From: a phage
Assembly: GCA_012690745.1 (NCBI GenBank)
Contig: GCA_012690745.1_4086.2
Length of the DNA: 64,000 nt
Reading direction: 5' to 3' (one strand)
A model generated the notes under the pieces. That model made no database searches. It saw only the letters and a list, made by a program, of their open reading frames with translations, and was not told the DNA's origin. This document shows positions 1,924 to 13,276 of the stretch, in pieces. How positions within the stretch are numbered: position 1 is the first letter of the stretch; each line of letters starts with the position of its first letter. Both the position numbers and the translations under genes were made by a program.

Positions 1924-2540
1924 AAAATTTTATTTTGTTTTTTCCAATAGTTCCCCTACCGCGTCGGGGTAAATTCCCCAGCAGTATCGAACGTTAGATT
2001 TTTCTGAATCTGGAATCATTATCTTATAAACTGGGGGCAATGTCAACGGCCTGGACGGATATTTTTAAAATTTTTTTCAGTACTGAATTTTGGGCGTAAC
2101 TATGCACCCGGTGGGCTTGAGTCTTTCTCGACTTGATGGAACTATTATACAGTACTGAAAAAATAAAGCAATACCCTGGAAGCAAAAAAGTTTTAATTAA
2201 TTTGCTTGCTATCCTGGGCCGGACTATGGTACTATATTTCAGTACTGAGAAAGTGCGTTTACCTGCTAGGGTGCGGGAGTGTATCCTTTTTTTATATCTT
2301 GAATTTTGGGCGTAATTCCGCACCCTCTGGGGTTTCCGCTTTCTCACGTCTATGTAGTAATTATACGCTTTTTCAGGATCAAGTCAATACCTAAAAACAA
2401 AATAATTGAAAATAATTTAACGCGTTTAAACGGCCTGTAAAGCCCTGGAATGATTGGAATGGTGCAAATGTATAGCTTATGTGTATTAATGCGTTAGAAT
2501 GCGTCTGAGGCCGTTTTATGGGGTGTAGTAGTGATTTGGT

Positions 2541-2632
2541 TGATTCAGTACTGAATAATAGTACTCCTATATAGAAAGATAGTTCCCCTGGATTGATTCA
2601 GTACTGAATAATAGTACTCCTATATAGAAAGA
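2541..2632. repeat. 39-bp perfect direct repeat x2 (2541-2579, 2594-2632)
   Basis: tgattcagtactgaataatagtactcctatatagaaaga repeated; contains two AGTACT sites. Confidence 0.7.
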
Positions 2633-2663
2633 AAACTATTTTAAAAGTATTTGTAGAAAGTAC

Positions 2664-2691
2664 TTGCACCGTACTGATAAAAGCGTATAAT
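2664..2691 (+). promoter_or_regulatory. sigma70-like early promoter with downstream 5' hairpin (2705-2723)
   Basis: -35 TTGCAC 2664-2669, -10 TATAAT 2686-2691; hairpin agcgggaa-cac-ttcccgct. Confidence 0.7.
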
Positions 2692-2746
2692 GTTTTACAT
2701 CGAGAGCGGGAACACTTCCCGCTACACTTTAAGAGAGATTAATACG

Positions 2747-3109
2747 ATGGCAACTCAAATCACCAAAATTATTGCTAACCTGGTTAACTTCCGCGACGAG
2801 ATGAAAGATCTTCCGGCGGCGACGGTTAAAACTCACATTGACGCATACCGCGAACTGATTAAAATGCTGCCGCTTAAGCGTGAACAATACGCCGCTACCG
2901 TGATGCTTGATGCGATGATCCATAAGATGATCGCCAGTGATTTGACGATGGTTTATCAGTATATGGGCGAAAATTTCGCGGTGTGTAGTAAGCCAGTACC
3001 AGGGATGGCAACAACTGAGGAATTGCACGGCTTAAACTTAAAACAAGATGCATGGGATAATATGCCTCGTTTCCTGGTATGGGCTGACAGTGGCAAAATT
3101 TACAAATAA
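2747..3109 (+). CDS. hypothetical protein
   Basis: Track ORF 2690..3109 trimmed to ATG 2747 (track ATG lies in the -10 TATAATG); protein starts MATQITK. Confidence 0.6.
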   Translation: MATQITKIIANLVNFRDEMKDLPAATVKTHIDAYRELIKMLPLKREQYAATVMLDAMIHKMIASDLTMVYQYMGENFAVCSKPVPGMATTEELHGLNLKQDAWDNMPRFLVWADSGKIYK

Positions 3110-3123
3110 GTTTAATAAAGTAC

Positions 3124-3151
3124 TTGCAAACTATGTTTAATGGCGTATAAT
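3124..3151 (+). promoter_or_regulatory. sigma70-like early promoter with 5' hairpin (3163-3182)
   Basis: -35 TTGCAA 3124-3129, -10 TATAAT 3146-3151. Confidence 0.7.
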
Positions 3152-3204
3152 GTTTTACATCAGGTGGGGAATAGTTCCCCACTATATAAGAGGATTAAAA
3201 AAAA

Positions 3205-3444
3205 ATGGCTAAATCAAAAATGTTCTTAGGTCACAAAAACAAAACTCATTGGAATGTAAGCCTGTGGATTAATAACGATGAGGGATTGTATCGGTTGGCC
3301 CTGGACTTTATTGCCGCCAATACTAATCGCAATGATGCGGCCCGTCATATGATGTTATTTTTAGAACAGACTGGACAAGATAAAACACCGGACGGATTCA
3401 AATATAGCACTACTGCGATCCGTGCGGCGATGGTTGGAATGTAA
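3205..3444 (+). CDS. hypothetical protein
   Basis: Track ORF; RBS GAGGA upstream. Confidence 0.6.
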   Translation: MAKSKMFLGHKNKTHWNVSLWINNDEGLYRLALDFIAANTNRNDAARHMMLFLEQTGQDKTPDGFKYSTTAIRAAMVGM

Positions 3445-3464
3445 TAGAATTTATTTAAAGTACT

Positions 3465-3493
3465 ATCATTTTTTTGCGATAGTACTTTATAAT
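3465..3493 (+). promoter_or_regulatory. promoter-like element (good -10, poor -35)
   Basis: -10 TATAAT 3488-3493; flanks resemble the promoter at 15935. Confidence 0.3.
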
Positions 3494-3530
3494 AGTGTTT
3501 TATTCATACACCAACGATAAGGGCAACAGC

Positions 3531-3797
3531 ATGAATATTAAGTATTTTGCGACGCGTGAACAAGCTCGGATCGCCGCACGCCAGGACGGGGCAACGTTTA
3601 AAGATATGGGAGCGGGATCGGCAAGTGGTAAACGTTGGGCCATTGTAAAGCGTAGTACGGCCAGATCATTACAGTACTGGTTAGCGGCCTTAAAAAGTCC
3701 CGATAGTGTATCGCGTCGAGTGGTAGAAATAAAGCTCGACCGAAAGGGCAACCGCGTGACCGTGTACCGTACTAAAAAGATTGCAGTACTTGAATAA
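3531..3797 (+). CDS. hypothetical protein (paralog of 16012..16407)
   Basis: Trimmed from track 3495; shares FATREQARIAAR...TFKDMG...RW and DRKGNRVTVY with 16012..16407. Confidence 0.6.
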   Translation: MNIKYFATREQARIAARQDGATFKDMGAGSASGKRWAIVKRSTARSLQYWLAALKSPDSVSRRVVEIKLDRKGNRVTVYRTKKIAVLE

Positions 3798-3804
3798 AAA
3801 GTAC

Positions 3805-3832
3805 TTGCAAACTATGTTTAAAGGCGTATAAT
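3805..3832 (+). promoter_or_regulatory. sigma70-like early promoter with 5' hairpin
   Basis: -35 TTGCAA 3805-3810, -10 TATAAT 3827-3832; hairpin gagcgggaactcttcccgc follows. Confidence 0.7.
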
Positions 3833-3884
3833 GTTTTACATCGAGAGCGGGAACTCTTCCCGCCTATAACCTGGAGTAATAAAA

Positions 3885-4115
3885 ATGACTAATATGTATA
3901 TGACTGAAGTTAAAACCGTAAAAGATACTACCACGAATAAAACTACTTACTTACAGCGGATCTGTGGTGTATGGCAACGTATCAGCAAATCAAAGTACTT
4001 TAAATTAACATCATATGCAAACCGTTCTGATTCATTCAGTACTGAAATAAAAGGTAATAAAGTACACCAATACGGCACTTATTATTATTACAGCCTGGAC
4101 GCGATTGCAGTATAA
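3885..4115 (+). CDS. hypothetical protein
   Basis: Track ORF; RBS GGAG. Confidence 0.55.
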   Translation: MTNMYMTEVKTVKDTTTNKTTYLQRICGVWQRISKSKYFKLTSYANRSDSFSTEIKGNKVHQYGTYYYYSLDAIAV

Positions 4116-4145
4116 GCAGTTTACAAATCTTTACAATTGCCGGTA

Positions 4146-4174
4146 TTGACTTATTTTGTCAGTACTGGCATAAT
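4146..4174 (+). promoter_or_regulatory. promoter (TTGACT/CATAAT class) preceding inverted-repeat element pair
   Basis: -35 TTGACT 4146-4151, 17-nt spacer, -10 CATAAT 4169-4174. Confidence 0.55.
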
Positions 4175-4197
4175 GTATTCATTGGCAGATAAGCCGT

Positions 4198-4272
4198 AGC
4201 CCATAGGGTGCGGGAGTGTATCTATAGAAAAATTAGTTTAGTATAGTTACAATTGTGCACCCGGTGGGTTAG
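4198..4272. repeat. Inverted pair of the cccaYagggtgc element (A copy 4198-4227, inverted B copy 4241-4272)
   Basis: agcccatagggtgcgggagtgtatctatag and inverted gtgcacccggtgggttag; family also at 2104, 2265, 2328, 6333, 10644, 12327, 14679, 17987, 20241. Confidence 0.6.
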
Positions 4273-4364
4273 CTGTTGTCATGGGGTATATTATGCCAGT
4301 ACTTGATAATGCTGTCAATACTTTTTTTTACTATCCAGTACAGAAAACTATTTTTAAAAAGTAC

Positions 4365-4392
4365 TTGCAAACTATGTTTAAAGGCGTATAAT
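4365..4392 (+). promoter_or_regulatory. sigma70-like promoter driving a conserved ~80-nt leader / candidate small RNA (4395-4475)
   Basis: -35 TTGCAA 4365-4370, -10 TATAAT 4387-4392; leader near-identical to 14797-14875. Confidence 0.65.
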
Positions 4393-4394
4393 GT

Positions 4395-4475
4395 TTTACA
4401 TCAGGACGGGGAACGAAATAAGTAACTTCCCGTTAAGTAGCCCAGGAGTAAGGCACACGAAAAACTCCCCTGATA
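4395..4475 (+). ncRNA. candidate small RNA / structured leader (copy 1)
   Basis: Transcribed between two tandem promoters; near-identical copy at 14797-14875, divergent copy at 7262-7330; contains hairpin cgggaa-N13-ttcccg; no ORF. Confidence 0.35.
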
Positions 4476-4482
4476 AAATAGT

Positions 4483-4510
4483 TTGACAAATGTTTTTAAA
4501 AGCGTATAAT
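4483..4510 (+). promoter_or_regulatory. sigma70-like promoter
   Basis: -35 TTGACA 4483-4488, -10 TATAAT 4505-4510. Confidence 0.7.
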
Positions 4511-4542
4511 ACTTACATCAACTACTGAATGAGGGTTATAAA

Positions 4543-5154
4543 ATGAAAACTATCACTACTACTACTTTCGTTATGGATTTTTCTGAATTGAACGCAGAAC
4601 AACAAACGTCAGCTATCGAACTGGTTCGGGAACGTGAAAAAAACTCAAACGACAATTATTTTTCTGAAAGTGAAATTGAATACTATAAAGAAACAGTACT
4701 ACCGGAATATGGCATTAATGACGCTGAAATACAATTCAGTGGTTTTTGGTCCCAGGGTGACGGTGCATCAATCAGTACTGACCACGTTGACGCAGTGAAG
4801 TTTTTACGCAAGGTTAGAGCGTTAACTAAGTATCGCTCAATCCGTCACCTGCTGAATGAAGATGAATTATCTATGAGGGTACAGCGTTCTCAATCCCGCT
4901 ACTCACACGAAAACACTGTAAGCGGGTACATTGAATCGGGGTACACTGATTTAACAGCAAAACAGGAAGCGTTAGCCAATGAGCTTGAGGAATTGCTTAC
5001 TGTTACTATTCGTGAATTATCTCGCAAGTTGTACCGTGATTTAGAGAATGCATATGAGGATCAATTCACTACTGAGAACATCACGGCACTGATCGAGGGT
5101 AACGAGTATCAATTCAATGTTATTGATGGCGTAGTAGAATCAATCGCATATTAA
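4543..5154 (+). CDS. hypothetical protein (203 aa)
   Basis: Track ORF; RBS GAGGG; contains FSGFWSQGDGAS segment; family not identified. Confidence 0.7.
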   Translation: MKTITTTTFVMDFSELNAEQQTSAIELVREREKNSNDNYFSESEIEYYKETVLPEYGINDAEIQFSGFWSQGDGASISTDHVDAVKFLRKVRALTKYRSIRHLLNEDELSMRVQRSQSRYSHENTVSGYIESGYTDLTAKQEALANELEELLTVTIRELSRKLYRDLENAYEDQFTTENITALIEGNEYQFNVIDGVVESIAY

Positions 5155-5209
5155 TTTAGTACTGAGATAATGGCGGGGAATGGTTCCCGCCTTTACTGAG
5201 GAATATCTA

Positions 5210-5497
5210 ATGAGCAAAGTAATTAGCTATACAGTATTAAGCAAGTCATTATCTATTAGCCAGTGCACTGATGGTTATTGGCTTTATGATGAATCGCGTG
5301 GCATGAATTTAGCTATGCGTGCAAAAACTGCTGAGGCGGCGTATCTTGAGGCACTGGAATACTACCAGGAACGATTAAAGGAAGTAGAAAACGATTATAA
5401 TAACCTGAAAGCGAAAGTAGATCATTTCGTCGGGCAATTCGTTGACGATGACGAGGAAGACGGGCACTACTGCGACCGTTGCGGATCTTACAGTTAA
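5210..5497 (+). CDS. hypothetical protein
   Basis: Trimmed from track 5180 to ATG 5210 with RBS GAGGAA; track start lies in hairpin 5173-5192. Confidence 0.6.
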   Translation: MSKVISYTVLSKSLSISQCTDGYWLYDESRGMNLAMRAKTAEAAYLEALEYYQERLKEVENDYNNLKAKVDHFVGQFVDDDEEDGHYCDRCGSYS

Positions 5498-5514
5498 GTA
5501 CTAAGGATTATCTA

Positions 5515-5721
5515 ATGAGTGATTTAATTGAACGTATCAAAGAGCTTGAAGAAAAAGAATTACAGTTAATCGGATTGCGTAATAAAGTTTATTCAGAGCT
5601 TGGAGGCTTCATACAGGCTTGGGATAGTGGTGATCCTGATGCTTTACCTGCTAACCGCCAGGCGATGATCAATGATGTGAGAAGTGTCTTTGATTATGTT
5701 TTAAAAAGTACTGGACACTAA
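5515..5721 (+). CDS. hypothetical protein
   Basis: Trimmed from track 5479 to ATG 5515 (RBS AAGGA); starts just after upstream stop. Confidence 0.55.
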   Translation: MSDLIERIKELEEKELQLIGLRNKVYSELGGFIQAWDSGDPDALPANRQAMINDVRSVFDYVLKSTGH

Positions 5722-5739
5722 GCAATAAAGGCGTATAAT
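5712..5739 (+). promoter_or_regulatory. sigma70-like promoter with 5' hairpin (5751-5772)
   Basis: -35 TGGACA 5712-5717, -10 TATAAT 5734-5739. Confidence 0.6.
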
Positions 5740-5791
5740 ACTTTATATCGAGAGCGGGAATAGTTCCCGCTACTAATGAGGAATACTACAA

Positions 5792-5956
5792 ATGAATACT
5801 TTTACCTTCGCTCAATTGAACGCCCTGGATGTATTGTCTGATGCTTTGCGGGATGCAACTGAAAGCGGTTTATTTGACAATGTTGACATTCACCCTGATG
5901 TAATTAATAATTTTTGTGATGCTATCGCAGAAGTACTGGAAGATCTAAAAAAATAA
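5792..5956 (+). CDS. hypothetical small protein (54 aa; not in ORF track)
   Basis: ATG 5792 after RBS GAGGAA, downstream of promoter and hairpin; stop TAA 5954-5956. Confidence 0.45.
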   Translation: MNTFTFAQLNALDVLSDALRDATESGLFDNVDIHPDVINNFCDAIAEVLEDLKK

Positions 5957-5966
5957 TAGAAAGTAC

Positions 5967-5994
5967 TTGCAATTAGTTTTTAGTACTGTATAAT
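5967..5994 (+). promoter_or_regulatory. sigma70-like promoter with 5' hairpin (6007-6025)
   Basis: -35 TTGCAA 5967-5972, -10 TATAAT 5989-5994. Confidence 0.7.
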
Positions 5995-6044
5995 AGTTTA
6001 CATCAAGGGGAGAAATGGTTCTCCCTGGTAATGAGGAAAATAAA

Positions 6045-6266
6045 ATGGCTAATATCACTACTCTTTCCCAACTGGAAGCACTGGTTAAATCTATGCGGGA
6101 ACATGCCGACAATATCGGCGTAAAAGATCCAGCCGTTTGCTTCTGCGACGAAATGAATGATGATACACTGGTAATAGCAGAAGTACAAGATATTTCTAAC
6201 TATTCATCGCGTTACACTGGCGGCGTAGCAAATAAAGGTGACTTCTGTTTATACCTTACCAAATAA
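6045..6266 (+). CDS. hypothetical protein
   Basis: Trimmed from track 6015 to ATG 6045 with RBS GAGGAA. Confidence 0.6.
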   Translation: MANITTLSQLEALVKSMREHADNIGVKDPAVCFCDEMNDDTLVIAEVQDISNYSSRYTGGVANKGDFCLYLTK

Positions 6267-6271
6267 CAACG

Positions 6272-6301
6272 CGGGGAGATAATAACTCCCCGTTACTTTT
6301 T
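6272..6301 (+). terminator. rho-independent terminator
   Basis: Stem cggggag / ctccccg, loop ataataa, then T-rich ttacttttt. Confidence 0.6.
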
Positions 6302-6434
6302 CAGTACTGAATCATTTAATAGACGGATCTCGGCACCCTGTGGGTTAGTGACTGTATCGTCTTTATGTAGTAATTATGCCAGTACTGGATGCAGTTGTCA
6401 ACAATTATTTTTCAAATACTTTTTATTAAAATAC

Positions 6435-6462
6435 TTGCTATTAGTTTTTAAACGCGTATAAT
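6435..6462 (+). promoter_or_regulatory. sigma70-like promoter with 5' hairpin
   Basis: -35 TTGCTA 6435-6440, -10 TATAAT 6457-6462; hairpin ggggagcggttcccc. Confidence 0.65.
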
Positions 6463-6509
6463 GTTTTGCATAGGGGGAGCGGTTCCCCTGGTAACTAAGG
6501 AATAAGAAA

Positions 6510-6746
6510 ATGGTCGAACAAATCAAATCAACGTCTTCGAATGTAACGGGAACGGTAGCACACTTTACTAGTGATGAATCGCGGGGCGTTCCCTATTGTG
6601 CTGTACATGTAAACACTGAGGGTAACTACTGGTTTACGGTTTACGGATCATATTCATTTGGACGGCCAGGGCATCAAAAAATTCTGGATAAAGTACAACC
6701 AACGGGTAAAAATATCACTGCCGAAATGTTTTATAAAAAATCATAA
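6510..6746 (+). CDS. hypothetical protein
   Basis: Track ORF; RBS AAGGAA. Confidence 0.6.
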   Translation: MVEQIKSTSSNVTGTVAHFTSDESRGVPYCAVHVNTEGNYWFTVYGSYSFGRPGHQKILDKVQPTGKNITAEMFYKKS

Positions 6747-6751
6747 AGTAC

Positions 6752-6779
6752 TTGATAATAGTTTTTAGTACTGTATAAT
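6752..6779 (+). promoter_or_regulatory. sigma70-like promoter with 5' hairpin
   Basis: -35 TTGATA 6752-6757, -10 TATAAT 6774-6779; hairpin gggggagcggttccccc. Confidence 0.65.
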
Positions 6780-6830
6780 ATTTTACATCGCAAGGGGGAG
6801 CGGTTCCCCCTGGTAACTAAGGATAATCAA

Positions 6831-7130
6831 ATGAAAATTGCAATCATCGCCCTGGCTTTATCTGTTTCCTCTTTCGCTGTTAATGCGTCGTTAGATGTAA
6901 GTAGTGAAAAATTCATTCAGTGCACTGTAGCGATGACCAATGAAAGTACTGGCGAGATTGTTTTAAAGGATTTAGAGATCCAGCCCGAAGCATTTAAAAA
7001 CGGGCCGTTCCATGAAGAAGACGAAAACGGTAGCACAACAATTTATTACGATGCAAGTACTAAACGCGGTTCGGTCACTGTAATGGATACTGAGAAAGTA
7101 ACGCACACAGGAGTAATTAACTGTTTATAA
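6831..7130 (+). CDS. putative secreted/periplasmic small protein
   Basis: N-terminus MKIAIIALALSVSSFAVNA-S looks like a Sec signal peptide with AxA site; RBS AAGGA. Confidence 0.6.
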   Translation: MKIAIIALALSVSSFAVNASLDVSSEKFIQCTVAMTNESTGEIVLKDLEIQPEAFKNGPFHEEDENGSTTIYYDASTKRGSVTVMDTEKVTHTGVINCL

Positions 7131-7147
7131 TCTAGTACTGAATCACT

Positions 7148-7176
7148 AGCCCACTTATACAGTGGGCTTTTTTGTT
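7148..7176 (+). terminator. rho-independent terminator
   Basis: Stem agcccact / agtgggct, loop tatac, T6 tract. Confidence 0.75.
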
Positions 7177-7226
7177 TTTGTAGTATCGTAGTACTGCATA
7201 CTTTGAAAATAGTTTTAAAAAAGTAG

Positions 7227-7254
7227 TTGACATTACCAGGGAAAAGCGTAGAAT
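7227..7254 (+). promoter_or_regulatory. sigma70-like promoter followed by ~100-nt leader (divergent copy of the 4395-4475 leader)
   Basis: -35 TTGACA 7227-7232, -10 TAGAAT 7249-7254; leader begins catcaagacggggaac. Confidence 0.6.
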
Positions 7255-7368
7255 GTATTACATCAAGACGGGGAACATTAAGTAGACCGCCAGTAAGTCG
7301 AATGAAAAACTGGACACGTCAAACAAACTTTGATAAACTAACTTAAACTTTAATTGAGGATTTATAAA

Positions 7369-7851
7369 ATGGCTAATGTAAAATCATTTCTGAAAGCACT
7401 GATTTCTAACGATACTGTTATTGCTGCTGAATTGCTGGCTGACCTGGATAATGATACCATGAAAGCAGTACGCAACAATTTTAACATTGCTTACAGTGAA
7501 GCGAAAGAACTACAAGCCAAAAAGGTAGCAGAACTGGAAGAACAGAAAAAAGCCCGTGAAGCAGAACTGCAAGCAACAATAGAAAGTATTCAGGCGGCGG
7601 TGTCTGGTTTAGATCTGGAAGTGGTTATTGAAATGGCACATAAAGCCCTGGCGGTTAAGTACGGTGAAGATAAGCCGGAATCTAAGCCTAAAAAATGGAT
7701 TCAAGAACGTGTTACTGTTGTCCTTGATAACGGGGAAGAACATTTGATTCCTGTACGCGGTAACTGCATTGCGGTAGTACTGGATGCAATCAAAGAAAGC
7801 GGTATGACTCGCGAGGAATGGATCGAAGCTCACCGCAAAGTTGAAGCATAA
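7369..7851 (+). CDS. hypothetical protein (coiled-coil-rich, 160 aa)
   Basis: Trimmed from track 7354 (TTG) to ATG 7369 with RBS GAGGA. Confidence 0.65.
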   Translation: MANVKSFLKALISNDTVIAAELLADLDNDTMKAVRNNFNIAYSEAKELQAKKVAELEEQKKAREAELQATIESIQAAVSGLDLEVVIEMAHKALAVKYGEDKPESKPKKWIQERVTVVLDNGEEHLIPVRGNCIAVVLDAIKESGMTREEWIEAHRKVEA

Positions 7852-7872
7852 CAATTAAAGTACTGAATCACT

Positions 7873-7900
7873 AGCCCACTGTATAAGTGGGCTTTTTTGT
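7873..7900 (+). terminator. rho-independent terminator
   Basis: Stem agcccac / gtgggct, loop tgtataa, T6 tract. Confidence 0.75.
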
Positions 7901-7907
7901 GTTTATC

Positions 7908-8022
7908 GTTTACCAGGCCACCAGCACCGCCTAGAATCGATTCTAACGCATTAAACTGATTATCTGATGCATCGCCCTAGCTGGTGGCGTTAAGGTCGTT
8001 AGAATGCGATTGAGGACGTTTA
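7908..8022. repeat. Complex palindromic region: arms ccaccagc (7908-7915) / gctggtgg (7970-7977), 14-bp perfect palindrome tagaatcgattcta (7922-7935), and cgttagaatgcg motif (7987-7998)
   Basis: Read directly; cgttagaatgcg also at 2492-2503 and 12043-12054. Confidence 0.6.
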
Positions 8023-8052
8023 AAGTATTTTGCAAAAAGTAATAAAAAGTAC

Positions 8053-8080
8053 TTGCACGATTAAGAGATTAGCGTATAAT
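8053..8080 (+). promoter_or_regulatory. sigma70-like promoter with 5' hairpin
   Basis: -35 TTGCAC 8053-8058, -10 TATAAT 8075-8080. Confidence 0.7.
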
Positions 8081-8135
8081 GTTTTACATCGAGAGGGGGA
8101 AACGGTTCTCCTTCCAAATCAAAGGAATCAAAACA

Positions 8136-8363
8136 ATGGCTATCGTAATCGCTTATGTAACTGGTACTACTGGCACTTCTTCTACTGTTGCTGTAATTAC
8201 CAACAAGAAAGGTGCGGAATTACATTCTGCAATGGATACCTGGGCGGTAAATGAGTTCGGTCAGTGGGCAAGTGTAGCATATGTTGAAACCTATCAAGTG
8301 CCAACCATTAGCTTAACGGATCTCGGTGTAGATCGTATCCTTTGCCTGGATGAATTAAATTAA
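8136..8363 (+). CDS. hypothetical protein
   Basis: Trimmed from track 8079 (ATG in -10) to ATG 8136, RBS AAGGA; starts MAIVIAYV. Confidence 0.6.
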   Translation: MAIVIAYVTGTTGTSSTVAVITNKKGAELHSAMDTWAVNEFGQWASVAYVETYQVPTISLTDLGVDRILCLDELN

Positions 8364-8371
8364 AAAAGTAC

Positions 8372-8399
8372 TTGCAAAGTAAATCAGATAAAGTATAAT
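8372..8399 (+). promoter_or_regulatory. sigma70-like promoter with 5' hairpin (8412-8430)
   Basis: -35 TTGCAA 8372-8377, -10 TATAAT 8394-8399. Confidence 0.7.
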
Positions 8400-8449
8400 A
8401 CATTACATCAAGGGGAGAAATGGTTCTCCCTGATAATGAGGAAACTAAT

Positions 8450-8593
8450 ATGAAAACTTGTCAATGTGGTAAAAAATCTATTACTGGTTTAAAGCGGGGC
8501 GTTGCTCTTTGCCAGTACCATTATAATTTACAAGTATGGGGTAAAGAATGGGCCGACCAGGTGGAAGCAGCAAAGAAAGCAAAAAGTAAGTAA
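8450..8593 (+). CDS. hypothetical small Cys-rich protein (47 aa, possible zinc ribbon; not in ORF track)
   Basis: ATG 8450 after RBS GAGGAA; CQCG...CQYH spacing. Confidence 0.45.
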   Translation: MKTCQCGKKSITGLKRGVALCQYHYNLQVWGKEWADQVEAAKKAKSK

Positions 8594-8612
8594 AATTATT
8601 ATCACAGTACTA

Positions 8613-8641
8613 TTGACATAGATTGATAGTACTGGCATAAT
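8613..8641 (+). promoter_or_regulatory. sigma70-like promoter (TTGACA-N17-CATAAT class)
   Basis: -35 TTGACA 8613-8618, -10 CATAAT 8636-8641; same architecture at 11472, 11751, 12274, 19570. Confidence 0.65.
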
Positions 8642-8674
8642 AGATTTTATCAAGACAACTAAGAGGAAATTAAA

Positions 8675-9019
8675 ATGGCTAATATCAACACTATCGCAAA
8701 ACAAAATATCAACCTGTCTTCTGTTGAAGTTGTACATATTGCCGCTCGGCGTTGGTTCCAGGCTTCATATGGTAACACTTATTTCTCTTTAAGTGTAGAC
8801 GTAGAAATTGATGGTAATTTTATTGAAGTAGTAAACGTGCCGTTCCAATATGGATACGGGGATCACTTTGACACTGTAGCAATGGAAGAATTTAGCAAGG
8901 TTATTAATATGGAAGATAAAGAGTTTTTACGCGGTTCTTATCTTTCCCGTTTTTGCCGTGACAATAATATCACTGTTTACAGTTCGGTAACTGATGTTAA
9001 ACGCAAAAAAGATCTTTAA
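8675..9019 (+). CDS. hypothetical protein (paralog of 15589..15912)
   Basis: Track ORF; RBS AGAGGAA; shares GNTY...YGYG...DVKRKKD with 15589..15912. Confidence 0.6.
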   Translation: MANINTIAKQNINLSSVEVVHIAARRWFQASYGNTYFSLSVDVEIDGNFIEVVNVPFQYGYGDHFDTVAMEEFSKVINMEDKEFLRGSYLSRFCRDNNITVYSSVTDVKRKKDL

Positions 9020-9099
9020 TTAGCTTTACTTTATGCAGATACTTTGATACAGTGTCTGCATAGGGGAAAGAAATTAAATCAACTTAAGAGGATAGTAAA

Positions 9100-9369
9100 A
9101 TGAAAAATATCAGTACTTTAATCGATGCAGGTACACATGTTCGTCGGTCTATGGTTGCAACCAGTTCTACAAAACAAGTACCAAGCGGTTATCTTGTATT
9201 TGTGCACGATGGAAAACTCCTGGAACGTTCAATCAATTTTGATGTTAAAAACAATTGCCGTTTTATTATCTTTAAGCGTGAACAATATAAAATTGATTTG
9301 CCAGCGAAGCCCATTAGCGGGGCGTACAGCGTACAATCATTGTTTGAGCGTCAACCTTACACCTATTAA
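9100..9369 (+). CDS. hypothetical protein
   Basis: Track ORF; RBS AAGAGGA. Confidence 0.55.
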   Translation: MKNISTLIDAGTHVRRSMVATSSTKQVPSGYLVFVHDGKLLERSINFDVKNNCRFIIFKREQYKIDLPAKPISGAYSVQSLFERQPYTY

Positions 9370-9420
9370 TCAAAACATCGTTAGCGGTCGATTTAGGCCG
9401 CTTATATTGGGGATTATACC

Positions 9421-9693
9421 ATGAACGTTAATCAAGTACTGAATGAGATCGAAAGCATCATTAAACCGATGAAGCGTACTGATGCTATGTTAACACCGGA
9501 AGAATGCCGCCTTTATGAGCGTTACAGCGTCGAACAAGTCCAGGCAATGGCTATGGCTACCCCAGCCGTTTCACCGCCTGAGAATGCGTTACAGGACGTT
9601 ACAGGGGATTATATCATTAATCCAGTACTAGGGAAGATGACTGCAATCACCGAAGATCAAAAAGACTACTTAAGCCAGTACTTAAAAGGTTAA
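9421..9693 (+). CDS. hypothetical protein
   Basis: Track ORF; contains 20-bp segment identical to intergenic 12047-12066. Confidence 0.55.
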   Translation: MNVNQVLNEIESIIKPMKRTDAMLTPEECRLYERYSVEQVQAMAMATPAVSPPENALQDVTGDYIINPVLGKMTAITEDQKDYLSQYLKG

Positions 9694-9698
9694 TTAAT

Positions 9699-9908
9699 AT
9701 GCTTACTGTACAGGATAAGATCGACATCTTAAAGGTTAATATGTATGTGATTGATGCCGTACCTGGTAAAGTATTTGCATACGATGACACCACTGTAAGC
9801 AATTTCTACTATAGCCAGGACGTGGGGGATCTTTCTGTACAGTCGGTTATTGAAAATGTAGTTAATGCAGCGTATGAGCATTTACTTTCAAATAGTACTT
9901 GCAATTAG
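9699..9908 (+). CDS. hypothetical protein
   Basis: Track ORF; 3' end overlaps the next promoter -35. Confidence 0.5.
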   Translation: MLTVQDKIDILKVNMYVIDAVPGKVFAYDDTTVSNFYYSQDVGDLSVQSVIENVVNAAYEHLLSNSTCN

Positions 9909-9926
9909 TTTTTAAACGCGTATAAT
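9899..9926 (+). promoter_or_regulatory. sigma70-like promoter with 5' hairpin (9939-9958)
   Basis: -35 TTGCAA 9899-9904, -10 TATAAT 9921-9926. Confidence 0.7.
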
Positions 9927-9977
9927 GTTTTACATGAAGGGGAGAAATGATTCTCCCCACTAATTAAGGAATATGAA

Positions 9978-10124
9978 ATGAAAGCATCAAAAAAGAGTAA
10001 TACTAAGAAAGCATGTTCACCTTTCGCTGGGGTATTCCCTTTACGTTTCGTTGATGAAGTGGTTTCCTACCCGCCGGGCCTTACTCCTGAGATGGTAGAA
10101 AGTTTGCGTAAATCTAAAAAATAA
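9978..10124 (+). CDS. hypothetical small basic protein (48 aa; not in ORF track)
   Basis: ATG 9978 after RBS AAGGAA; stop TAA 10122-10124. Confidence 0.45.
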   Translation: MKASKKSNTKKACSPFAGVFPLRFVDEVVSYPPGLTPEMVESLRKSKK

Positions 10125-10127
10125 TAC

Positions 10128-10155
10128 TTGCAATTAGTTTTTAGTACTGTATAAT
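10128..10155 (+). promoter_or_regulatory. sigma70-like promoter with 5' hairpin
   Basis: -35 TTGCAA 10128-10133, -10 TATAAT 10150-10155. Confidence 0.7.
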
Positions 10156-10205
10156 TGTTTACATAGAGGGGGAAATGGTTCTCCCCTGATACAAGGAGAA
10201 TCAAA

Positions 10206-10358
10206 ATGAAACAATATAATGCTCGGTTTGATGTTACTATCGGTAACGGCAAAGGTCAATTTTCTTTCAGTACTCGACGCAGTTATACAGAAAACTTCCT
10301 GCGTAATTGTGCACTGACCGCCGCTCAAATTAAACATTATTTTCAGGCTAAAAAATGA
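10206..10358 (+). CDS. hypothetical small protein (50 aa; not in ORF track)
   Basis: ATG 10206 after RBS AAGGAGAA; stop overlaps next start (ATGA). Confidence 0.45.
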   Translation: MKQYNARFDVTIGNGKGQFSFSTRRSYTENFLRNCALTAAQIKHYFQAKK

Positions 10359-10444
10359 AATCATTAGCTTATTACAGTTCGGCCCTGGTCGGTGCATTGA
10401 TCGCGGCGTTGTTAGTAACCTATCTATTCTTTATGGTGATTTAA
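10355..10444 (+). CDS. hypothetical small hydrophobic peptide (29 aa)
   Basis: ATGA-coupled to upstream ORF; sequence MKSLAYYSSALVGALIAALLVTYLFFMVI is one hydrophobic helix. Confidence 0.35.
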   Translation: MKSLAYYSSALVGALIAALLVTYLFFMVI

Positions 10445-10582
10445 ATGAATCCTAACGGTATAATTTACAGTACTCCTAAAACGAAAGCAGATAAAGCGAA
10501 AGCACGTAAAGCGAAAGTAAAGGAGTACATCAAGCAAGGCATGACGCGAAAGGCGGCGATTCTGAAAGCTAAAAATAAATGA
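10445..10582 (+). CDS. hypothetical small lysine-rich protein (45 aa)
   Basis: ATG 10445 one nt after upstream stop; highly basic. Confidence 0.4.
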   Translation: MNPNGIIYSTPKTKADKAKARKAKVKEYIKQGMTRKAAILKAKNK

Positions 10583-10587
10583 AAAAG

Positions 10588-10674
10588 TGGTTGACTTCGG
10601 TCAGCCATTTTGCTATTATATATTCATTGAGAGATAGCTCACTAGCCCACAGGGTGCAGGAGTGTATCTATTGT
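10588..10674 (+). promoter_or_regulatory. Repeated intergenic module copy 1: terminator-like hairpin with embedded TTGACT-N17-TATTAT promoter, then cccacagggtgc element
   Basis: Hairpin tggttgac-ttcg-gtcagcca + TTTT (10588-10611); -35 10591-10596, -10 10614-10619; element 10644-10674. Confidence 0.55.
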
Positions 10675-10723
10675 ATAATGATTGAGTACAGAAAACTATT
10701 TTAAAGTATTTGATAAAAAGTAC

Positions 10724-10751
10724 TTGCATACTATCTCAATAGGCGTATAAT
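10724..10751 (+). promoter_or_regulatory. sigma70-like promoter with 5' hairpin
   Basis: -35 TTGCAT 10724-10729, -10 TATAAT 10746-10751. Confidence 0.7.
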
Positions 10752-10802
10752 GTTTTACATCGCAAGGGGAAACGGTTTCCCCTGGTAATAAGGAAACGAA
10801 TC

Positions 10803-11144
10803 ATGACTATTGCAATTGCTCAATCTAACTTTGAAAACGAAATCATCGCTCAGGCACTGCGTTTAAATGATGGTCGGGCCGAAATCAATTACGGTTTCAA
10901 TAGTGGTGGATGTGAAAAATATCAGTACTTTGTAACGGCTGATGGCTGTGTCCTGGGTATCAATACAGTTATTGTAAACATTCAGAAAATTAATTTCAAT
11001 GATCCAGACGATAGCCAGTTTTACATCACGGGCGTAGACGTGAACTATGAGGATGACTCACTAACTGATGATCACACTGGCGAGAAGTTAGAAAGTGCAT
11101 ACGGTGAAGATGATTATCAGTCCGGTCCAGAAGATTTCGAATAA
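10803..11144 (+). CDS. hypothetical acidic protein
   Basis: Track ORF; RBS AAGGAA. Confidence 0.6.
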   Translation: MTIAIAQSNFENEIIAQALRLNDGRAEINYGFNSGGCEKYQYFVTADGCVLGINTVIVNIQKINFNDPDDSQFYITGVDVNYEDDSLTDDHTGEKLESAYGEDDYQSGPEDFE

Positions 11145-11158
11145 TATTAAAAAATAGT

Positions 11159-11186
11159 TTGACAATAGTTTTTAGTACTGTATAAT
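11159..11186 (+). promoter_or_regulatory. sigma70-like promoter with 5' hairpin
   Basis: -35 TTGACA 11159-11164, -10 TATAAT 11181-11186. Confidence 0.75.
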
Positions 11187-11239
11187 AGTTTACATCAAGG
11201 GGAGAATAGTTCTCCCCACTAACAGAGAGAGAAAACAAA

Positions 11240-11452
11240 ATGGCTAATATCCGCACTGTACTGAAAAATGCAAAACAAGTTTTATTTTCTGATCATGAAA
11301 ATTTCAACAAGGATATCACTGGCGTTCGGAATATCAAAGATGTAAAAAATGTTATGGGTATCTATTGCAATATGAAACGTGTTGGCACGTTCGGCGATAA
11401 AGTACTATACCAGGCAGGGGATTACAATTTTACACTGACTATCATTAACTAA
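11240..11452 (+). CDS. hypothetical protein
   Basis: Track ORF; RBS GAGAGAGA. Confidence 0.55.
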   Translation: MANIRTVLKNAKQVLFSDHENFNKDITGVRNIKDVKNVMGIYCNMKRVGTFGDKVLYQAGDYNFTLTIIN

Positions 11453-11471
11453 AAATATTATCACAGTACTA

Positions 11472-11500
11472 TTGACAACGTTTGATAGTACTGGCATAAT
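11472..11500 (+). promoter_or_regulatory. sigma70-like promoter (TTGACA-N17-CATAAT class)
   Basis: -35 TTGACA 11472-11477, -10 CATAAT 11495-11500. Confidence 0.65.
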
Positions 11501-11543
11501 AACTTTTATCAAGACAACGCATATTAATTTAAGGAATACTAAA

Positions 11544-11723
11544 ATGGCTATTATCGCAAAAACTGAAATCATCGGCCTGGATTCTATCATCATGACGTTT
11601 GAAGATCAAAAAGGGATGTATGTAGTTTCCTATGGTGATTATGTTCGGGAGTATGAAACAGTAGACGAAGCCTTTGAAAGTTACATTCGCCAGGTTAATA
11701 AAGCATACGACGATTACCGCTAA
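11544..11723 (+). CDS. hypothetical protein
   Basis: Trimmed from track 11472 (TTG of the -35) to ATG 11544 with RBS AAGGAA. Confidence 0.5.
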   Translation: MAIIAKTEIIGLDSIIMTFEDQKGMYVVSYGDYVREYETVDEAFESYIRQVNKAYDDYR

Positions 11724-11750
11724 AATATATTACCAGTACTATTAAATCTA

Positions 11751-11778
11751 TTGACAATGTTTGATAGTACTGTATAAT
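11751..11778 (+). promoter_or_regulatory. sigma70-like promoter
   Basis: -35 TTGACA 11751-11756, -10 TATAAT 11773-11778. Confidence 0.7.
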
Positions 11779-11822
11779 AACTTTTATCAACAGTAGTTAA
11801 CTTAACCTAAGAGAGAAAAATC

Positions 11823-11966
11823 ATGACAGCATTAGATTCATTCATCGACGCAGTACTGGCAAAAACTGGCGAGGATCTGACCGCAGAACAATACGCGATG
11901 ATCGAGCAATGCCAGCAAAACGGTAAATCGGTGAAAGATACTGTTAAGATTATCCGCAAGATGTAA
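11823..11966 (+). CDS. hypothetical small protein (47 aa; not in ORF track)
   Basis: ATG 11823 after RBS AGAGAGA; stop TAA 11964-11966. Confidence 0.45.
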   Translation: MTALDSFIDAVLAKTGEDLTAEQYAMIEQCQQNGKSVKDTVKIIRKM

Positions 11967-11972
11967 GATTAT

Positions 11973-12001
11973 AGCCCACTGGTTAACGCTGGTGGGCTTT
12001 A
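11973..12001 (+). terminator. terminator-like hairpin
   Basis: Stem agcccac / gtgggct with 12-nt loop; short T run. Confidence 0.4.
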
Positions 12002-12071
12002 ATCATTTACCCTATACAATGCCAGTACTAAACCGTTTAACTCGTTAGAATGCGTTACAGGACGTTTAACA

Positions 12072-12269
12072 ATGATTAGCATGAAATCAGTACAAAAACA
12101 AATAGAAACATTATCAAAAATTAAACGTAAACAGTACTCCTTAGAATATACAATCAATGGTAACTATCATCTAATGAAAGAAAATAATTTTATAGTCATT
12201 GATGAATCATTGCAGATCATTAGTATAGTACTGAAAGCATTAATCAATGACAGAAAAAAGTTAAAATAA
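12072..12269 (+). CDS. hypothetical protein
   Basis: Track ORF; no strong RBS. Confidence 0.4.
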   Translation: MISMKSVQKQIETLSKIKRKQYSLEYTINGNYHLMKENNFIVIDESLQIISIVLKALINDRKKLK

Positions 12270-12273
12270 TCTA

Positions 12274-12360
12274 TTGACAAATTATGCCAGTACTGGCATA
12301 ATACTTACATCAAGACGAGAACGTCACTAACCCATAGGGTGCACAAATGTAACTATATAA
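12274..12360 (+). promoter_or_regulatory. Promoter (TTGACA-N17-CATAAT) followed by cccatagggtgc element (module variant)
   Basis: -35 12274-12279, -10 12297-12302; element 12327-12360. Confidence 0.55.
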
Positions 12361-12440
12361 TATCGATCAATAAATGATCAAAAAAGTACTGGATCAATTT
12401 AGCATAAGGCGTATAATTCTGATCAAATCTTGATCAAAGG
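12355..12440. repeat. GATC cluster: five GATCAA repeats within ~80 bp in a 250-bp ORF-free region
   Basis: cgatcaataaatgatcaaaaaagtactggatcaa ... ctgatcaaatcttgatcaaagg. Confidence 0.6.
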
Positions 12441-12919: not shown

Positions 12920-13276
12920 ATGGGTATACAACATATCACGCGTACTACAGACAATGGTGAGATCACTGGCTATCAAGTACAAGGCAAAGTAGCACAATTG
13001 CAGTACTGGTTTGTTAAACGTGGCATTGTTGCACCGGATCTTGATTATGATCGTGTAGCGTTTATTGATTCTCTTTATGTTGATCCCGATAATCGCGGTA
13101 ACGGTGAAGGTACTGAATTAATGAATGCCTTTATTGATGCCGCCGATGATTCAGATTGTATCATCTTAGAATGCGATACGGGAGAAGATAACGAGTTTAA
13201 TCTTAAAGAATGGTATGAAAGTTTTGGTTTTGAAGTACTGATTAACTGTGAATATCCTATAATGATTTTATCCTAG
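12920..13276 (+). CDS. putative GNAT-family N-acetyltransferase
   Basis: SLYVDPDNRGNGEGTELMNAF resembles GNAT motif A; RBS GAGGA. Confidence 0.5.
   Translation: MGIQHITRTTDNGEITGYQVQGKVAQLQYWFVKRGIVAPDLDYDRVAFIDSLYVDPDNRGNGEGTELMNAFIDAADDSDCIILECDTGEDNEFNLKEWYESFGFEVLINCEYPIMILS

Follow-up and report, generated by a model that had tools for sequence, protein, structure and literature searches.

The window analysed here, a stretch of 64,000 nucleotides, comes from a 121Q/phAPEC6-like jumbo coliphage (Asteriusvirus) and carries several copies of a short sequence element (Table 1), all of them within the phage's long terminal repeat, which carries early genes. Three full copies, which we call sites A, B and C, are all intergenic and spread over 10 kb; they correspond to positions 1491, 7484 and 11797 of the annotated 21,525-bp direct terminal repeat of vB_Ec-M-J, and the position of the motif is conserved across Asteriusvirus genomes. 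Site A precedes the first early promoter and falls within the ~1.7 kb of non-coding DNA at the terminal repeat's left end. Site B is found 17 nt past a Chi site, which is an associated feature of the motif by position alone, and ~30 nt upstream of a TTGCAC-N17-TATAAT promoter-like site; a paralogous promoter module, with TTGCAC at 2664, TATAAT at 2686 and the same leader, GTTTTACATCGAGAG, follows site A. Site C, whose position is kept in five relatives, is preceded by a gene that closes with a hairpin (AGCCCAC...GTGGGCT) and places an AGGA 9 nt upstream of the ATG of ORF 12072-12269. The partial copy within ORF 12920-13276 may be due to chance.

Table 1. Copies of the element in the window and the features beside them
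Feature	Coordinates	Strand	Details
Site C, full element	12029..12073	+	aaaCCGTTTAACTCG-TTAGAATG-CG-TTAC-AGG-A-CGTTTAAC; nhmmer E = 8.6e-9
Site C, sub-parts			TTAGAATG at 12045-12052; 20-mer of the earlier note at 12047-12066
Site B, full element	7987..8028	+	TTAGAATG at 7999-8006; nhmmer E = 8.1e-7; conserved in relatives
Site A, full element	2483..2523	+	TTAGAATG at 2494-2501; nhmmer E = 1.4e-7
Embedded copy	9573..9600	+	in ORF 9421-9693; ACCGCC-TGAGAATGCGTTACAGGACGTT; nhmmer E = 4.8e-5
Diverged inverted copy at site B	7925..7958	-	GCGTTAGAAT-CGATTCTAGGCGG; nhmmer E = 1.3, weak
Inverted copy, 3' half only	2421..2443	-	TTACAGGCCGTTTAAACG; ~65 nt upstream of site A; nhmmer E = 0.12
Weak partial copy	13160..13182	+	TCTTAGAATGCGATACGGGAG; in ORF 12920-13276; nhmmer E = 0.043
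Chi site	7980..7987	+	GCTGGTGG; directly upstream of site B; reverse complement at 7918-7925
Chi site	11988..11995	+	in 3' arm of hairpin 11973-11998, 50 nt upstream of site C
Promoter-like site TTGCAC-N17-TATAAT	8052..8080	+	downstream of site B; read from sequence

An earlier note on this DNA had reported a 20-bp identity between a coding and an intergenic site, with a related core at two more loci, and had taken it for a cis-acting site rather than chance. The 20-mer, AGAATGCGTTACAGGACGTT, is indeed exact at 9581-9600 (within ORF 9421-9693) and at 12047-12066, where 5 nt separate its end from the ATG at 12072; a third copy with 3 mismatches is present at 8001-8020. The shuffled-control search that the note had named as a check reproduced the 20-mer match in none of 100 dinucleotide-preserving shuffles. 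The related core is likewise present at both of the further loci, as CGTTAGAATGCG is exact at 2492, 7997 and 12043, on the + strand each time; allowing up to 2 mismatches yields 7 matches where 2.6 are expected, a count reached in 3 of 100 shuffles. The larger inverted-repeat region described around the 7997 site was also recovered: its arms are GCCACCAGC at 7917-7925 and GCTGGTGGC at 7980-7988, the inverted copy between them contains the perfect palindrome TAGAATCGATTCTA (7932-7945), and + strand positions 7934-7947 are complementary to 7997-8011 (14 bp, one bulge).

Furthermore, an nhmmer profile trained solely on instances from outside the window phage's genus finds four sites in the 64 kb, at 12039-12069, 2488-2521, 7991-8025 and 9576-9600, with E-values of 9e-9, 1e-7, 8e-7 and 5e-5 respectively; it also picks up weak partial or inverted copies, and no further match has an E-value better than 0.04. 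Next to no credence can thus be given to the idea that the repeats are functionless products of chance or of a simple recent duplication in the window genome. Such an origin would suit the identity of the two 20-mers and the placement of sites A and B in paralogous promoter modules, but it is already refuted by the shuffles, by the homology to phage T5 described below and by the recovery of the same four sites with a profile trained on other phage families; the element is, moreover, present in unrelated flanks in many families.

The embedded copy has GAG in place of TAG and is translated as E-N-A-L-Q-D-V. The gene that holds it is small and mosaic, with some alleles lacking the motif and others neutralising the stop differently; the copy is a captured one in which TAG was changed to GAG. 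Being a captured copy in a mosaic gene, it offers no independent evidence of selection within the gene. Chance is nevertheless excluded, and the element proves to be a conserved non-coding one of many phage families. Judged from the sequence, the motif agrees with the cis-acting site that had been inferred, which is to this extent partly supported.

The element is, at ~34 nt, longer than previously described and not specific to the window phage. Its consensus, AAAAC(C)GC-TTAGAATG-SS-TT-NN-AGR-GCG-TTTTAG, is asymmetric, with an A-tract on one flank and a T-tract on the other, and includes three to four CGTT/TTAGA-like units spaced 10-11 bp; inverted pairs occur occasionally. The invariance of TTAGAATG is partly an artefact, because the patterns used to collect instances held that block fixed. 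T5-like phages, RaK2, phi92 and EP335 have the same 34-nt block in unrelated flanks, as do Vibrio genomes, numerous contigs of uncultured phages and one E. coli island. In 5,426 E. coli genomes the block hardly occurs; 11 of 20,395 E. coli records have a match, and the three looked at more closely comprise an island with an integrase and small MobQ plasmids. When 185,579 species genomes were scanned with a pattern that excluded the G-TTAGAATG and AGA subtypes, 8 matches came up, among which only the Vibrio ones look real.

Where it occurs, the element occupies non-coding inter-operon spacers, often 20-100 nt past a terminator, and mostly runs in the direction of local transcription. The RaK2 copy is antisense to the genes on either side and has a terminator hairpin directly 3'; one T5-like copy lies in a gap between divergently oriented genes and is probably not transcribed, since the corresponding gap in T5 holds annotated divergent promoters. 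The motif lies 7.7% of the way into the T5 genome and 8.1% into that of phi92, where the early block running inward from the left end finishes; the EP335 copy is 2.8 kb away from one record end and directly precedes a 1.9 kb non-coding stretch.

The element has a counterpart in phage T5. By blastn, a 48-mer from the window (12028-12075) matches several hundred T5-like records and T5 positions 9343-9374, within the annotated injection stop signal (iss) and at the start of IRD' (9332-9462); IRD/IRD' is an inverted repeat of this first-step-transfer region (naming: Wang et al.; Davison, bioRxiv 10.1101/866236). With T5-likes included in the profile, the window sites score E = 1e-7 to 1e-9. On these alignments, the element is homologous to the start of the T5 IRD' repeat. 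Next to the motif, T5-likes have paired DnaA boxes and a LexA-box-like palindrome that is near consensus; publications on T5 regard the repeat as a feature of T5-like phages without assigned function and have directed their attention to the DnaA boxes. A non-exhaustive literature search found no report of the IRD' repeat in other phage families, a search on the motif string returned nothing relevant, and the promoter motifs described in a paper on the related jumbo phage CBB are other ones only.

An all-against-all BLASTP of ORFs around the motif in more than 20 phage groups found no protein family common to more than two of them, so that no phage-encoded partner is evident; neither a mobile gene cassette nor the operator of a phage-encoded regulator is supported by a conserved coding neighbour. 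Could the block itself serve in recombination? A short homology 'linker', spread by horizontal transfer and kept because it promotes or marks exchange at module boundaries during co-infection, is, in our estimation, unlikely. The minimal length for RecA-dependent exchange is close to ~34 bp, and the element stands at borders of gene blocks that vary among relatives; Chi adjoins two of the three intergenic window copies and also site A in 121Q, and the gene with the embedded copy is mosaic around the motif. However, the motifs are not where similarity between the window and its relatives breaks off, and different phage families have neither related flanks nor common neighbouring genes. A + strand Chi acts on RecBCD arriving from the right and should stimulate exchange leftward, away from the motif. 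A passive linker, finally, would not retain an asymmetric 34-nt consensus across such distant phages.

A promoter function was weighed as well. At a stringent threshold, 4 of 33 non-redundant instances have a strong sigma-70 promoter within 200 nt, and a nearby strong promoter was rejected as a general rule. The element might itself be a compact promoter for host RNA polymerase, with TAGAAT as -10, a start ~7 nt on and no canonical -35, giving a short leader or small RNA. Indeed, TAGAAT agrees with the -10 consensus at 5 of 6 positions; a start near 12058 at site C would give a leader of 13-15 nt with the AGGA in place before the ATG, no other promoter is found between the upstream hairpin and the gene after site C, and the RaK2 element followed by its terminator would yield an RNA of ~40 nt. 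We nevertheless regard this as very unlikely: no lineage has a -35-like hexamer at 16-18 bp or a TGn extension, the conservation of all eight TTAGAATG bases and of the downstream AGRGCGTTTT is unlike the pattern of a -10 element, and the Shine-Dalgarno/ATG arrangement is found at site C alone. In keeping with these points, a promoter scan calls no window site, and the aligned instances have no conserved -35. A mini-ORF, ATG-CGN/GCT-NNN-AGR-NCG-TTT(-stop) with product M-R/A-x-R-x-F, was also considered; several differences between copies are synonymous in its frame (CGT/CGA, AGG/AGA, CTG/TTG), but it was rejected because it has no Shine-Dalgarno sequence, its stop position is unconserved and the in-gene copies are in another frame.

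Possible, although we remain doubtful of it, is action as RNA, in which the element would punctuate early-operon ends as a terminator-derived or protein-binding hairpin. The hairpin's stem would come from the A-tract/GC and GC/U-tract flanks and would expose a conserved UUAGAAUG...AGR loop; alternative folds would arise in some phages through sequestration of this loop by an upstream anti-sequence. The AAAACnGC and GCGTTTT flanks do form an inverted repeat, and the non-Watson-Crick pairs between them are G.U on the + strand. Long-range complements of 12 bp are found at two paralogous loci that have diverged in the sequence between the complements, and one of 14 bp at window site B; the prevailing co-orientation with transcription, the frequent position past a terminator and the RaK2 arrangement of element and hairpin point the same way. 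The layout, moreover, resembles that of an intrinsic (bidirectional) terminator, with A-tract, GC clamp, loop, GC clamp and T-tract; good terminator hairpins are formed by three relatives with the same flanks (L141, L147 and L152), and a phi92 terminator has the palindrome TAGAATCGATTCTA in its stem. The canonical motif differs from such terminators in having a 17-nt unstructured, sequence-conserved 'loop', and the three intergenic window copies are without a stem; a terminator scan (criterion: a GC-rich stem of at least 5 bp, a short loop, then a T-run) calls no window copy, and their folds are weak and inconsistent.

The alignment does not bear the stem out. Across 38 distinct sequences, 66.8% of cells in the flank stem are paired against 66.0% in the shuffled control (158 of 500 shuffles were as high), and the covariation score is 0.125 against 0.126 in shuffles; a conserved hairpin from the flanks, having no support from compensatory changes, was rejected. 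A hairpin internal to the 17-nt core was rejected too, because the GCG, GGC and GCC subtypes, read by eye, need different pairing registers. The upstream anti-sequence is real in some lineages only; as a general feature it was dismissed, with a mean best pair run of 7.3 against 7.2 and 6.7 in two controls. There are no Rfam matches at gathering scores in the window or T5-like loci, and at permissive thresholds none overlaps the element (E <= 5 in window 2300-12400, E <= 1 in ten other loci); ARAGORN finds no tRNA in the window. At least one copy in a gap between divergent genes and one antisense to its neighbours also speak against an RNA.

In the reading we tentatively prefer, the motif acts in cis: a conserved host factor would recognise it as double-stranded DNA, and it would mark the boundary of early DNA. 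What the analysis shows is the sequence family with its distribution and positions, whereas action as DNA, a host protein as reader and the boundary role are inferences. The reader would be a factor that the phage does not bring along, likeliest a conserved DNA-binding protein of Enterobacterales and Vibrionales. Phages would place one to four copies in the inter-operon spacers of the DNA that enters first, namely the long terminal repeat in the window phage and the first-step-transfer DNA in T5, and the 10-11 bp phasing of the units could allow a protein oligomer to bind one face of the helix. Binding may serve to mark or organise the early-DNA boundary, for example through control of adjacent early promoters or, in line with what has been suggested for the injection stop of T5, by anchoring or pausing the DNA as it enters.

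Reading as DNA by a host factor is favoured by a motif far above chance, conserved in position across Asteriusvirus and set in unrelated flanks in many phage groups, together with the lack of an evident phage-encoded partner and its near absence from E. coli genomes. The T5-like copies lie within a cluster of sequences matching host DNA-binding sites, and the divergent-gap copy, the antisense RaK2 copy, the flank stem without covariation and the lack of Rfam matches all suit a DNA site. Against it, no candidate protein emerged from the analysis, and the likenesses to known operators are presumptive. Several lineages have an upstream 12-14 bp complementary to TTAGAATGSS, with G.U pairs on the + strand only, which speaks for RNA; relatives with the same flanks and other loops look like true intrinsic terminators, site C lies in a gene's probable 5' leader and provides its Shine-Dalgarno sequence, and proximity to sigma-70 promoters is not general.

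The arrest of T5 transfer after 8% of the genome has been an open question since the 1960s, and papers from 2026 still describe its mechanism as unexplained. That a 34-bp block from the stop region is found also in jumbo myoviruses, phi92-like and EP335-like phages, Vibrio elements and uncultured phages suggests that whatever reads it belongs to the host and not to T5. A long shot, which we put forward for its consequences, is that the TTAGAATG element forms the cis-acting core of a host-factor-bound boundary or pause signal on incoming phage DNA, so that T5-type staged entry, or a comparable early-block checkpoint, would be used by many unrelated phages; if true, a host factor common to Enterobacterales and Vibrionales binds the element on the first few kilobases that enter. 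Being short and well defined, the block lends itself to use as a probe in pull-down, footprinting and mutagenesis work. Should its role be transcriptional punctuation only, it would still be an unannotated, widely shared early-region signal that could be used as an annotation marker.

Several known systems bear comparison. There are resemblances, which we take to be partial or non-conserved, to RfaH ops, boxA, DeoR, Cra and RcsAB operators and the CsrA SELEX motif, to the type I-F CRISPR repeat (handle and hairpin, in permuted order) and ToxI repeats, and to sigma-54, sigma-E and sigma-32 promoters. Operator arrays of the OmpR/PhoB family (OmpR, ArcA) probably share the asymmetric layout of three to four units 10-11 bp apart, and the element likewise stands upstream of some early promoters; however, no known consensus matches, conservation of the motif is far tighter than is typical of regulator sites, ArcA sites have a unit spacing of 11 bp against 10 bp here, and E. 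coli chromosomes, which contain the targets of such regulators, yielded no copies. The PeSL cassettes of T4-type phages and the 'boundary sequences' of mosaic phages are also short, conserved and non-coding, and sit between small early genes in hyperplastic regions near promoters or terminators. Those are kept within one phage group and thought to act via recombination, whereas the element is common to several families, with unrelated flanks and with breakpoints elsewhere. The T5 iss differs in that T5-likes have the LexA-box-like palindrome, the paired DnaA boxes and a fixed 52-bp spacer to IRC', which the window copies are without (no DnaA box, TTWTNCACA, or LexA box is found within 10 kb of sites A-C), and in that the window has its three intergenic copies over 10 kb. 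In both phages, however, small early genes and a terminator precede the element, which lies in the long terminal repeat, and the inverted pair seen at window site B is present in most T5-likes.

The earlier note had reported a 20-bp sequence shared between a coding region and an intergenic site, and this 20-mer, AGAATGCGTTACAGGACGTT, is indeed found exactly at 9581-9600 and 12047-12066, with a third copy carrying 3 mismatches at 8001-8020. The related core that it described is likewise borne out, as exact matches to the 12-mer CGTTAGAATGCG stand at 2492, 7997 and 12043, on the + strand in every case; furthermore, the 7997 site does lie inside a larger inverted-repeat region, whose arms (GCCACCAGC and GCTGGTGGC) flank a diverged inverted copy of the motif (7925-7958) that includes the perfect palindrome TAGAATCGATTCTA. 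Dinucleotide-preserving shuffles of the window gave zero matches to AGAATGCGTTACAGGACGTT, and we consider chance a negligible explanation for its recurrence. When the 64 kb were scanned with a profile made solely from instances in other phage groups, three intergenic sites (A, B and C) and the copy inside ORF 9421-9693 were recovered (see table); the other matches were weak fragments only, at 13165, 2440 (- strand) and 7952 (- strand). Five relatives carry sites A-C and the in-gene copy at the same positions as the window.

Motif copies and other short sites in the window
Feature	Position	Strand	Profile E
Site A	2488-2521		1e-7
Site B	7991-8025		8e-7
Copy inside gene	9576-9600		5e-5
Site C	12039-12069		9e-9
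Chi	1562, 7980, 11988, 13449, 14714, 17097, 18504, 20301	+	
Chi	1550, 7918	-	
AGTACT (examples)	2546, 2597, 8048, 9623, 9678, 12023		

Jumbo coliphages of the genus Asteriusvirus, among them 121Q, phAPEC6 and SP27, share 91-95% identity with the window. The record of one such phage, vB_Ec-M-J, carries an annotated direct terminal repeat of 21,525 bp; homology to this phage puts the physical left genome end near window position 973, and the terminal repeat placed in this way holds every motif copy of the window. This region is dense in small + strand ORFs and, with ten perfect TTGACA-N16/17-TATAAT promoters within 16 kb, is a host-polymerase early region. In vB_Ec-M-J, ~1.7 kb of non-coding DNA rich in short GGCTAGA/GGACG-type repeats follows the left end and precedes the first early promoter (equivalent to window ~973-2690). 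There are 11 copies of the E. coli Chi sequence GCTGGTGG in the window against 0.55 expected, 10 of the 11 within the first 20 kb (inside the terminal repeat) and 8 of those 10 on the + strand, with a back-to-back pair ~600 bp inside the physical left end; vB_Ec-M-J shows the same pattern, and this clustering may protect linear ends from RecBCD. Also extremely over-represented is the palindrome AGTACT (255 in 64 kb against ~16 expected under a first-order Markov model), with site consensus (C)AGTACT(G), which occurs in coding and non-coding DNA, 36% of sites falling in the 17% outside long ORFs. Weak, sub-threshold matches to Rfam 'Trp_leader' at 7836-7900 and 7090-7175 were rejected as leaders, since they are just the AGCCCAC...GTGGGCTTTTTT terminators of the region, which look like the trp attenuator hairpin.

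Beyond this genus, blastn with 48 nt around site C matched 559 phage records, spanning Asteriusvirus, several hundred T5-like phages, phi92-like, rV5-like and EP335-like phages, RaK2 and one Serratia jumbo phage. Further instances came from exact-pattern scans of viral, genomic and metagenomic collections: many uncultured contigs of 38-240 kb, an integrase-bearing island of a few E. coli strains, and two Vibrio genomes, in one of which two copies stand in tandem. The 48-mer matched in only 11 of 20,395 E. coli records, and the three inspected comprised an integrase-bearing island and small MobQ plasmids. This cross-family survey suggests a general role for the block as a signal of phage early regions; the literature searched yielded no paper reporting it in phage families beyond the T5-likes, a weakly informative absence. 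One distant relative, a 47-kb uncultured viral contig, has the motif at 2938 and homologues of the T5 pre-early genes A2, A1 and dmp at 4211-7037, in a single rightward block 1.3-4 kb downstream of it, indicating that the element goes together with the T5-type first-step-transfer gene set far outside the classical T5-like genera.

Across 26 non-redundant instances aligned by their core, information content is limited to ~34 nt, AAAAC(C)GC-TTAGAATG-SS-TT-NN-AG-R-GCG-TTTT-AG, in which CGTT/TTAGA-like units recur every 10-11 bp. The invariance of TTAGAATG is partly an artefact of collection, as the patterns used had fixed it; flank-only patterns retrieve related elements with other loops (TCAGAG..., CTAGAA..., TTAGAATCGATTCTAGA), some of them good terminator hairpins. 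The block typically follows a terminator by 20-100 nt, in a non-coding spacer (T5, EP335, phi92, several contigs, sites B and C). In phi92, whose linear genome has a 343-bp terminal repeat, the motif at 11,992 ends a rightward block of 36 early genes, at 8.1% of the genome as against 7.7% in T5. Orientation mostly follows local transcription, with exceptions: in RaK2 the copy runs antisense to the genes on either side, and one T5-like copy lies between divergently oriented genes, in a gap where T5 itself has annotated divergent promoters. Some instances have a strong promoter after them, as in the paralogous TTGCAC-N17-TATAAT modules downstream of sites A and B, but this is not general (4 of 33 instances at a stringent threshold); that the element itself is a compact -10-only promoter strikes us as quite improbable. 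The modules after sites A (2640-2700) and B (8025-8100) each contain an AT-rich stretch, this promoter, GTTTTACATCGAGAG and a short hairpin, pointing to duplication of a motif-promoter-leader unit. Between site A and its promoter lie two ~38-nt direct repeats (TTGATTCAGTACTGAATAATAGTACTCCTATATAGAAAGA; 2541-2578 and 2593-2630), each with two AGTACT sites, which are missing from the site B module.

Tentatively, we propose that the element is a double-stranded DNA recognition site, which a conserved host factor would read at operon boundaries within first-entering DNA. This possibility draws on its tight primary-sequence conservation without covariation, the sequences matching a LexA box and DnaA boxes that neighbor it in T5-like phages, its occurrence in probably untranscribed and antisense settings, and the helical phasing of its units. 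Motif neighborhoods across phage groups share no common protein family, so a trans-acting reader is more likely the host's. It is somewhat unlikely that the element acts instead as RNA, either as a punctuation element or as a protein-binding hairpin. Such a role would fit two paralogous loci of one uncultured phage, in both of which a 12-bp upstream segment is complementary to TTAGAATGGC, with G.U pairs on the + strand only, and a 14-bp upstream complement at site B; however, a complement of this kind is not general among instances, and the flank stem is entirely missing from all three intergenic window copies. The flanks AAAACnGC/GCGTTTT could pair, yet among 38 distinct sequences the resulting 10-bp helix had 66.8% of cells paired against 66.0% in shuffles, and covariation was not above shuffles. 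Rfam gave no match to the element, and no tRNA was found.

Copies inside genes appear to have been captured or tolerated. ORF 9421-9693 encodes a 90-aa protein whose family is conserved over the N-terminal 45 residues and mosaic at the C-terminus; the window allele has TAG changed to GAG in the motif, the metagenomic allele P0041 (locus L132) carries the complete consensus, AAAACGGC and CGTTTTAGAC included, with TAG to TAC, and other alleles either lack the motif or stop before it. In small MobQ plasmids the motif lies within mobQ and is read in the same frame, TAG having become CAG; two E. coli plasmids of roughly 4 kb carry the near-consensus CTCAGAATGCGTTACAGGACGTTTTAGACG in the 3' part of this relaxase gene (L062, 2495-2525; L063, 20-50), ~400 bp upstream of rep. 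The conserved T that would make a stop codon is replaced in each, and the window, P0041 and mobQ copies all read as (E/Q/Y)NALQDV, from which we infer capture or tolerance. For the element as a whole, a function as recombination linker seems improbable.

Judged by its sequence, the element is a member of the T5 IRD/IRD' repeat family; the injection-stop mechanism was still called poorly understood as of 2026. T5-like phages usually have a second, inverted copy 2-4 kb off, and their order is motif, palindrome, paired DnaA boxes. This palindrome (CTGTATAAATATACAG) matches the LexA box consensus, as does that of the T5 injection-stop region, TACTGTATAAATATACAGTA (record L004, 1925-1945; T5 ~9424-9444). 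The latter is placed between motif and DnaA boxes, with a counterpart at ~1582-1597 in record L001, and in two distant T5-like contigs (L088, L102) a box resembling it separates the motif from a TTGACT/TTGACA promoter. The T5 match to our motif, at 9343-9374, makes up the opening stretch of both the annotated "injection stop signal" and IRD', an inverted repeat at T5 9332-9462 (Davison, bioRxiv 10.1101/866236). There, the LexA-box-like sequence was treated only as a palindrome, and IRD/IRD' were described for T5-like phages only (Davison, bioRxiv 10.1101/866236); to this family the window contributes new members, in a jumbo myovirus.
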